A stretch of DNA of 63,552 nt, the filler included, from Collodictyon triciliatum (taxonomy: Eukaryota): assembly GCA_043381765.1 (NCBI GenBank). It is 3 parts of 3 records of this genome, joined end to end, with 100 filler letters (N's around TTAATTAATTAA, not from the genome) between each part and the next. Parts side by side here need not be neighbours in the genome. Positions count along the whole stretch, not along the records: positions 1 to 10,609 come from JBHJMP010000056.1; 2 more parts are not named here. One strand, 5' to 3'. Within the stretch, counting starts at the first letter, position 1, and each line of letters starts with the position of its first letter. A model generated the notes under the pieces. That model saw nothing but the letters and a program-made list of their open reading frames with translations, was not told the origin of the DNA and ran no database searches. This document shows positions 987-2,172 of the stretch, in pieces. Made by a program: the position numbers and the translations under genes.

Positions 987-2172
987 TCAGATCTTTGACG
1001 CTAGTACATAGGCGTACAATGCACGAACCCACGAGCAAAATATCTCAGCTGCAAGGGAGACTGGTCGTATACGCCTGGGTGCAAAGTTTGGGTTATCCAT
1101 ATATTTCTTGACTTTCTCCATCACCTCTTCGCTCACGCCGTCTTTGTTGAAGTGTGTGAATTGGCGTGTGAAATTGATTTCTCCCATCACTTTCTTTGCC
1201 GCTGTCCATGTTGGCTCCTGGTTGAGCAAAATGCATACAGGTTCAAAGACGAGTGCGACTAACTCTGGTGGCCTGGTCATACTTTTGAGCTCACGGATTT
1301 CGTAGATGCTCAGATGGTCTACAGCGATTGTGGCTTGTGCAAGTACTTTAGCTGCTTTGTCCAACTCTGACGGTTCTACTTCGACTTGCTCAAGCTTGAC
1401 CACCTTCGATGAACTTGCGTTTGGAACATGCTTCTAAGATGGCTGATTAGTGTCTGTGTATTTCATGGAGCCTCTTGGGGGTGTACATGTTACATCACTA
1501 TGCTTTCTCTCTTTCTCTTTGTCTTGTTTCTCGTAGTTCTTTGTTACCTCAGGCTCCTTCTTCGATGTCTTTGGAATTACATGCTTTTCAGGAGAGATGG
1601 AGCTGCTACGTCTGGGTATTTGCTTGGATTCAGCGTGCTTGGCTTCATCGTGCTTGGCTTCAACGTGCTTGGCTTCAACGTGCTTGGCTTCAACGTGCTT
1701 GGCTTCAACGTGCTTGGCTTCAACGTGCTTGGCTTCAACGTGCTTGGCTTCAACGTGTTTGGCTTCAACGTGTTTGATGGTACTATATTTTGTTTCCTTC
1801 TCACCCTCAGCAGGCCTTACAGGTTTGGTTAACACATGCTTCTCGGGCGACGAGTCTCGTGATTTATTTTTCTTCATCTCTCCAACCCGATGCTCATCGT
1901 GCTTGGTTACTTTAGATACGATGGGTCTTTCCTGGTGTGCAGCCTCTGTGTGGTGAAGCCCCTGCAAAACATTTGTTTCTCTTTACATATGCACATATCA
2001 TGCAGCATTTTTATGTTGCGAGAATTACAGAGCTCCAAAATTGTGTTGAGAATCGCCCCAATTGACAAATAAAAAAAATTGAGATGACATTCACTAGAGA
2101 AGCAATGAAAGGTTACATGAGAGGGCGCTGGCAAATGGTGCTCCGGCTTGGACACGTTTGCCTTCACCTTGG
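987..2172 (-). CDS. Low-complexity KHVEA-repeat protein with a C-terminal dynein stalk/microtubule-binding domain; 5' end unresolved
   Basis: Exons about 2172-2117, 1961-1494 and 1433-987. The 60-bp intron 1493-1434 (GTAACA...ACTAAT...TAG) removes the in-frame TAG. The last exon reads IRELKSMTRPPELVALVFEPVCILL..PTWTAAKK..FNKDGVS..KYMDNPNFAP..VSLAAEIFCSWVRALYAY, the dynein heavy chain MTBD pattern. Confidence 0.8.
1626..1775 (-). repeat. Coding 15-bp tandem repeat x10 (8x KHVEA, KHDEA, KHAES)
   Basis: Unit GGCTTCAACGTGCTT is visible on the + strand. Confidence 0.95.

Follow-up and report, generated by a model that had tools for sequence, protein, structure and literature searches.

We examined a stretch of 63,552 bases from Collodictyon triciliatum (GenBank assembly GCA_043381765.1), referred to here as the window, and in particular a minus-strand locus at positions 987 to 2172 that encodes a microtubule-binding domain (MTBD) of the dynein type with no motor beside it. 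A dynein heavy chain has six AAA+ modules in a ring, a linker, a tail, and an MTBD at the tip of a stalk; the stalk consists of the antiparallel coiled-coil segments CC1 and CC2, about 100 residues each, and joins the MTBD to AAA4 and AAA5. According to Lacey et al. (2019, PMC6629372), the MTBD binds at the intradimer interface of tubulin, and its affinity is set by the registry of the stalk, alpha versus beta+. The features of the locus, with the evidence for each in parentheses, are as follows.

987–989, minus strand: TGA stop of the MTBD frame, a few residues into CC2 (reading of the open reading frame [ORF]; alignment to P0061, a 291-amino-acid metagenome ORF)
990–1373, minus strand: dynein-type MTBD without a flap, from a short CC1 helix to H6 and the start of CC2 (residues 127–147) (Pfam, phmmer against PDB, AlphaFold2, Foldseek)
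1374–1433, minus strand: residues 1–20 of the MTBD ORF (KHVPNASSSKVVKLEQVEVE), not dynein-like, opening with the KHV motif (predicted local distance difference test [pLDDT] 59–66; motif table)
1434–1436, minus strand: in-frame TAG between the KHVEA ORF and the MTBD ORF, at the Glu codon (gag/gaa) of the motif S-P-E-K-H-V (ORF reading)
1437–1620, minus strand: linker rich in Lys, Glu and Ser, with the second SPEK site and the TPPR site (codon score, motif table)
1437–1547, minus strand: segment within a candidate 114-nt intron, with an exon-like GC content of 0.41 (composition, comparison of donors)
1621–1776, minus strand: coding minisatellite with a 15-nt period, (KHVEA)x8 plus KHDEA and KHAES (Tandem Repeats Finder [TRF], translation)
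1777–1877, minus strand: N-terminal basic segment with the first in-frame ATG at 1877–1875 and the first SPEKHV motif (translation, motif table)
1878–2172, minus strand: upstream stretch with putative exons, included in the sequence-only reading from which this work started; 1878–1982 is open in frame and has no ATG (ORF reading)
around 2115–2172, minus strand: possible but unsupported mini-exon bounded by GT...AG (ORF reading)

The minus-strand stop-to-stop ORF at 987–1433 has 148 codons followed by TGA, and it encodes a complete globular dynein MTBD. Its sole match in Pfam was PF12777 ("MT", Microtubule-binding stalk of dynein motor; E = 3.9e-16, 59.5 bits with a cutoff of 24), in an alignment of ORF residues 11–138 with profile positions 72–205, a partial coverage of 134 of the 344 positions. 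When PDB chains were searched with phmmer at a threshold of E ≤ 1, the top match was human DNAH6 (8j07_g5, E = 8.2e-26), which aligned without gaps over ORF residues 21–143 and DNAH6 residues 2770–2892. Each of the best 60 of the 92 matches in this search was either an engineered MTBD construct or, to judge from its length and the position matched, a dynein heavy chain. An AlphaFold2 model made with a 40-sequence alignment had a pLDDT of 92.7 and a predicted template modeling score (pTM) of 0.82, with helices at residues 23–39, 43–50, 57–69, 76–83, 88–93, 102–112, 119–122, and 127–147. Foldseek superimposed the model on the MTBD of mouse cytoplasmic dynein (3err_A) with a root-mean-square deviation of 1.3 Å over 127 columns and a query TM-score (TMq) of 0.80. 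In the same 40-sequence alignment the domain had the consensus residue at all 17 conserved columns, 3 of them invariant and 14 nearly so. These results bear out the sequence-only reading, which had described a stalk-tip pattern ending in a stop at 987 and had proposed both the PF12777 comparison and the structure prediction as checks; the first gave a match well above the cutoff, and the second a confidently predicted MTBD fold.

The domain has the same helical core as the heavy-chain MTBDs of DNAH6, DNAH2, 3ERR, and 6RZB, and it keeps their P-P kink (P55, P56) as well as W76, K80, K97-D98, S126, C133, W135, and Y142. The flap between H2 and H3 is absent, as it is in the inner-arm chains DNAH6 and DNAH2, whose matches contained no gaps; the matches to DNAH7, DNAH12, DNAH3, and DNAH1 were 14–16 residues longer on the target side than on the side of the MTBD. 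What the ORF retains of CC1 is one short helix of about 17 residues (23–39), and the frame ends at residue 148, within the first turns of CC2. In an alignment to P0061, the TGA occupies the position at which heavy chains have a V-x-P-K/R motif.

No other part of a dynein heavy chain was found in the window. When five full heavy chains (4150–4954 residues) were compared with all 63,552 bases by tblastn, 993–1418 alone matched, with E values of 1e-21 to 1e-23; the two remaining rows had E values of 0.17 and 0.91. By this search the window contains no AAA+ ring, linker, or tail, and no second MTBD unit, so that the original statement that AAA+ modules are lacking here holds across the whole window. 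There is no long CC1/CC2 stalk either, as only the profile positions given above were matched and residue 148 is the last of the frame. From the stop to the edge of the window, a distance of 986 bases, no dynein-like frame was seen, and bases 1 to about 10,600 are free of N.

Directly upstream of the MTBD ORF, in the same frame, is an open stretch of 182 codons (1434–1982, minus strand) with its first ATG at 1877. The region from this ATG to the TAG encodes 147 residues with an isoelectric point of 9.5, a net charge of +9.7, and a grand average of hydropathy (GRAVY) of −1.5. This N-terminal half, basic and strongly hydrophilic, is probably disordered. It contains three [ST]-P-x-[KR] sites, namely two SPEK sites and one TPPR site, and a tandem array that TRF placed at 1621–1776, with a period of 15 nt, 10.4 copies, and 97% matches. 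The array translates to eight exact copies of KHVEA together with one KHDEA and one KHAES. The KHVEA array described as a tail in the sequence-only reading is therefore present, but the word "tail" does not fit, because the repeat lies N-terminal to the MTBD. The proposed fusion of the two was correct insofar as they share one continuous frame; the in-frame TAG at 1434–1436, which interrupts that frame, had been overlooked.

The KHVEA ORF and the MTBD ORF together make up one frame of 332 codons with this single internal stop. The tripeptide K-H-V occurs in 11 copies upstream of the TAG, and the three residues that directly follow the TAG repeat it once more. In two dispersed upstream copies the motif is S-P-E-K-H-V, with E-K-H-V encoded by gag aag cat gtg in one and by gaa aag cat gta in the other; a third copy, at the junction, reads P-S-TAG-K-H-V (tag aag cat gtt), which places the TAG at the expected Glu position; TAG is one base away from GAG. 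A codon score gave frame 0 as the best frame of the MTBD (0.18, versus −0.34 and −0.13) and of 1437–1547 (0.03, versus −0.41 and −0.33), and likewise of 1548–1620 and 1779–1877. Frame 0 was not the best in the KHVEA array, and it was not favored in 1878–1982 (−0.06, −0.04, and −0.26). The simplest model is one exon running from the ATG at 1877 to the TGA at 987, 296 codons with one internal stop. The TAG would then be one of four things: a sequencing or strain difference, part of a weakly supported intron, a site of read-through, or a recent nonsense mutation.

MTBDs detached from a motor were also found in other protists. Searched exhaustively with phmmer at E ≤ 1e-3, a collection of 1.84 billion representatives yielded 2770 proteins, and the best 150 of these were examined. 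Two or more MTBD units were present in 52 of the 150, in proteins of 275–1277 residues with no motor; on re-scanning, 28 of the 52 had two units, 18 had three, 3 had four, and 3 had five. Ten of the multi-MTBD proteins were scanned against Pfam. Nine carried PF12777 alone, in 2–5 stretches covering about profile positions 56–261, and the tenth (P0021) had a WD40 propeller followed by two units. One of the class, P0003, is the complete ORF of a Diphylleia rotans transcript, with 386 residues and 2 units; P0008, from Picozoa, also has 2 units, and P0001 has 5. Still others are encoded on contigs as long as 1.36 Mb or were present in several data sets. Of 30 relatives looked up in sequence clusters, only the Diphylleia and Picozoa proteins could be assigned to an organism. 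Comparable unit limits were seen in P0003, P0004, P0010, P0013, P0015, P0018, P0025, P0053, and P0105. Further multi-MTBD examples in the range P0001–P0029 are P0004 and P0006. With 52 of the best 150 matches lacking a motor, and one of these a Diphylleia transcript, we conclude that motor-less MTBD proteins are a real class.

A PDB search with one multi-MTBD protein returned 24 chains, all of them heavy chains or constructs, and there is thus no solved structure for a motor-less member. A search from P0003 returned mostly heavy-chain fragments, and an atlas search returned only short PF12777 clusters, which are probably heavy-chain fragments. A literature search, which does not prove absence, found no paper on motor-less dynein MTBD proteins; one candidate, PMC6974359, was irrelevant to them. 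Motor-less and often tandem MTBD proteins thus appear to be frequent among protist sequences and seemingly undescribed.

The position of the window MTBD among these relatives was examined by score and by phylogeny. Scored against individual units, it reached 79–98 bits with heavy-chain MTBDs and 13–84 bits with motor-less units, the best of the latter being the two Diphylleia units of P0003 (84 and 68 bits, 40% and 32% identity). Against a profile of MTBDs from 36 long heavy chains it scored 133 bits. On this profile it exceeded only 7 of 62 short single-MTBD matches (range 123–204) but 119 of 125 motor-less units, and it is therefore intermediate. In a FastTree phylogeny of 224 units and 128 columns, the motor-less units clustered, with 7 label changes in 125 rows, and the window MTBD paired with P0061 (support 87) among heavy-chain-type rows, without starred support; P0061 may itself be a heavy-chain exon. 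For an approximately unbiased (AU) test, IQ-TREE was run on 89 rows and 128–129 columns, made up of the window MTBD, 45 of the 52 multi-unit proteins (each represented by a single motor-less unit), and 43 rows of heavy-chain type (all 36 long ones and 7 chosen short ones). A clade uniting the window MTBD with the motor-less units was not rejected (p = 0.547).

Environmental data provided independent copies of parts of the locus. None of the 15 runs listed as matching the stretch was an RNA run; 13 were freshwater or subsurface metagenome DNA, with small shares. Contigs from four environmental DNA runs, at least 99% identical, covered 1026–1296, 1465–1678, 1829–1979, 2521–2764, and 2999–3193. 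This identity indicates that the organism or a close relative occurs in nature; the contigs also reproduce sequence from each half of the locus. Three in-frame differences were seen: T>C at 1205, giving T77A in the MTBD; G>A at 1616, giving P123S in the 1434–1982 frame; and G>A at 1680, synonymous and within the repeat. The intergenic segment 2521–2764 had 3 differences in 244 bases, versus 0–1 per 75–219 bases over the coding halves, numbers too small for a comparison.

Set beside known systems, the predicted product differs from heavy chains in having no AAA+ ring, linker, or tail, in being joined to a basic repetitive region, and in retaining about 17 CC1 residues and a few CC2 residues, where a stalk has about 100 of each. 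With such stubs and no ring, control of registry by a motor is impossible. The product resembles the multi-MTBD proteins of protists, whose domains are trimmed in a similar way (profile positions 72–205 here and about 56–261 there) and which also have no motor and have low-complexity flanks; the P0003 units and the window MTBD have a common C-terminal WVRALY-x-Y ending. Unlike those proteins, with their 2–5 units, it has a single unit and a TAG in frame. Of the sequence-only reading, the absence of a motor is confirmed by tblastn, and co-option as a microtubule binder with no motor role is plausible in view of the motor-less MTBD proteins of other protists. Engineered SRS-MTBD and short-stalk constructs (3ERR, 6RZA, 6RZB, and 2RR7) show that an MTBD with a short stalk folds alone and can decorate microtubules. 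In these constructs the registry is fixed by a fusion partner, whereas nothing fixes it in the window product, whose affinity is therefore not predictable from them. DNAHX (bioRxiv 10.1101/2025.01.18.633724) is another dynein-derived protein with a proposed non-motile role; by its title it is a heavy-chain subfamily, whereas the window product is an MTBD only.

In the predicted product, the MTBD would dock where dynein itself binds, at the intradimer site of tubulin. With no long stalk or ring to hold CC1, H1 and CC1 would be free to take the bound position, and binding of the predicted kind would then be constitutive and independent of ATP. The basic region might add electrostatic affinity for the acidic tails of tubulin, and its [ST]-P-x-[KR] sites may let proline-directed phosphorylation tune it.

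On the evidence as a whole, we lean towards a lineage-specific gene for a motor-less MTBD protein, a non-motor microtubule binder that either still functions or was disabled very recently; it would be a new architecture built around a known domain. A number of results weigh against this view. The segment containing the TAG has the GC content of an exon (0.41, versus 0.20 and 0.30 in the two introns of the neighboring gene). The in-frame GT donors ahead of the TAG read GTAACA only; those of neighboring genes, in a few examples compared by eye, read GTTTGT, GTTTGT, GTTAGT, and GTGAGT. Because of the exon-like composition and the donor sequence, an intron excising the TAG (114 nt from the GT at 1547 or 60 nt from the GT at 1493, to the AG at 1435–1434) is less likely. 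The MTBD ORF has no ATG ahead of residue 52. Positions 1297–1464 are in no contig of the four environmental runs, so that the TAG and the junction rest on this assembly, and the three in-frame differences, two non-synonymous and one synonymous, are far too few to speak to selection. The KHVEA repeat is 97% identical in DNA, which indicates that it is young and that its function may be nil; as a young minisatellite in a genome rich in simple repeats, it is perhaps just a spacer. In searches for an ortholog, no listed match among the 1.84 billion representatives was above 43–44% identity, and that collection thus has neither an ortholog nor a close heavy-chain parent; a scan of metagenome contigs gave 287 pattern matches and none that was confirmed, and a word-index search with the 296-residue read-through sequence (X at the TAG) gave none from 548 candidates. 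Finally, the end branch of the window MTBD is long (0.73–0.8, versus a median of 0.3).

Several of these results, namely the TAG in exon-like sequence with weak candidate donors nearby, the missing start codon, the three unsuccessful ortholog searches, and the long end branch, together with the FastTree position among heavy-chain-type MTBDs, are what would be expected of a dead relic, a duplicated heavy-chain stalk-tip exon beside an unrelated minisatellite ORF, with the TAG as a true end and the MTBD untranslated and not yet decayed. We regard this as rather unlikely, since the 148 codons have stayed open although the closest known heavy chain is at most 44% identical, the 17 conserved positions are all retained in a confidently predicted fold, and no remnants of CC1, CC2, or AAA modules flank the domain in any frame. 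In addition, the KHV motif runs on into the MTBD ORF with the TAG at the Glu codon of the motif, and the limits of the domain match those of protist motor-less units, at least one of which is transcribed. An exon of a heavy chain or other multi-exon gene, separated from the rest by misassembly or joined to it by long-range or trans-splicing, seems very improbable: the stop is only 986 bases from the start of the window and no outside contig bridges the junction at 1296–1465, but the frame ends at a TGA within the CC2 stub and no donor ahead of it is convincing, the in-frame upstream sequence is the KHVEA region rather than CC1 or AAA4, and neither AAA1–4 nor a linker was found in the 62 kb of the window upstream. 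The N-free sequence from 1 to about 10,600 and the diverging plus-strand gene that begins near 3265 also speak against it. Scarcely credible, to a slightly greater degree, is that the TAG is decoded (for example as Glu or Gln) or read through to give a 296-residue fusion. Its alignment with the Glu codons of a repeated motif and the single 332-codon frame that results when TAG is read as sense would suit such decoding; none of the 10 other frames of at least 200 codons opened by TAG (11 listed, including this locus) extends a recognizable domain, however, four long leucine-rich repeat (LRR) and kinase ORFs of 361–458 residues are free of TAG, and no tRNA gene was found in the window. A motor-less MTBD gene thus remains the reading that we favor.

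Elsewhere in the window, the plus-strand neighbor that starts near 3265 had been assigned to TTRAY2; this could not be confirmed, as its first two exons had no Pfam match. Just downstream of the MTBD stop, at 181–381 on the minus strand, is a short acidic ORF beginning with Met (MDEPHIPDSNF...), with no Pfam match; another minus-strand gene may begin with it as its first exon. A match to a radial-spoke-head-like protein (PF04712, E = 4e-9) at 44667–45203 on the minus strand suggests that the organism probably makes motile cilia, and with them axonemal dyneins as a possible source of the domain; the window protein could compete with such dyneins for binding sites. An ORF at 12616–13251 on the plus strand combines an Arg-Ser repeat with a CCCH zinc finger of the Nab2 type (PF21803, E = 1.2e-5) and is probably an exon of an RNA-binding protein. 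A frame of 281 residues at 13851–14696 on the plus strand has a GC content of 0.52, versus about 0.35 around it, and lies in a GC-rich island at about 13.8–15.4 kb that has long overlapping frames on both strands and no Pfam match; it could be an unusual gene, or DNA of foreign or mobile origin. The genes at 17845–20933 (plus strand) and 48093–51080 (minus strand) are paralogs in opposite orientation; in each, a long LRR ORF precedes one for a protein kinase, and the C-terminal extensions of the two kinase ORFs are similar. For the kinase ORF at 19848–20933, no homolog was found at E ≤ 1e-20 among proteins of 198–632 residues.

The window is unusually dense in long micro- and minisatellites, many of which adjoin runs of N. 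Their sites are listed here.

1–84; 3636–3735; 6370–6567; 7400–7540; 8700–8880; 11.4–12 kb; 17.0–17.7 kb: micro- and minisatellites
19270–19345; 19680–19800; 28.1–29 kb; 47.0–47.8 kb: micro- and minisatellites, continued

At the very start of the window is (TTTGGTTTT)x9. The long run at 6370–6567 would read as poly-Ile, poly-Tyr, or poly-Leu depending on frame, and (GT)n and (TAATA)n occur elsewhere. The KHVEA array may be a further expansion of this kind, lying within a reading frame by chance.

The wider motor-less and often tandem MTBD class is of more interest than this single locus, which is weakened by the in-frame TAG and by the negative ortholog and RNA searches. Work on the MTBD has so far dealt almost wholly with its place at the output end of an allosteric motor, where stalk registry sets the affinity, and a natural MTBD with neither stalk nor ring is a ready-made experiment on the microtubule behavior of the unconstrained domain. 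In tandem arrays, avidity could offset weak binding at single sites. We suggest, as a tentative proposal, that the dynein MTBD is an autonomous and widely reused module, which in protists serves as non-motor microtubule-associated proteins (MAPs) of one or 2–5 units that would occupy the footprint of dynein on tubulin. The locus described here would be a single-unit member, a registry-free MTBD with a disordered basic arm tunable by phosphorylation, both contributing to its affinity; it could be a static anchor, or it could compete with dynein and so gate the access of the motor to particular microtubules. If motor-less MTBD proteins do bind microtubules, they would be an overlooked family of MAPs using the binding site of dynein, and this, if true, would bear on the regulation of dynein traffic and on the architecture of the axoneme and cytoskeleton in these organisms.

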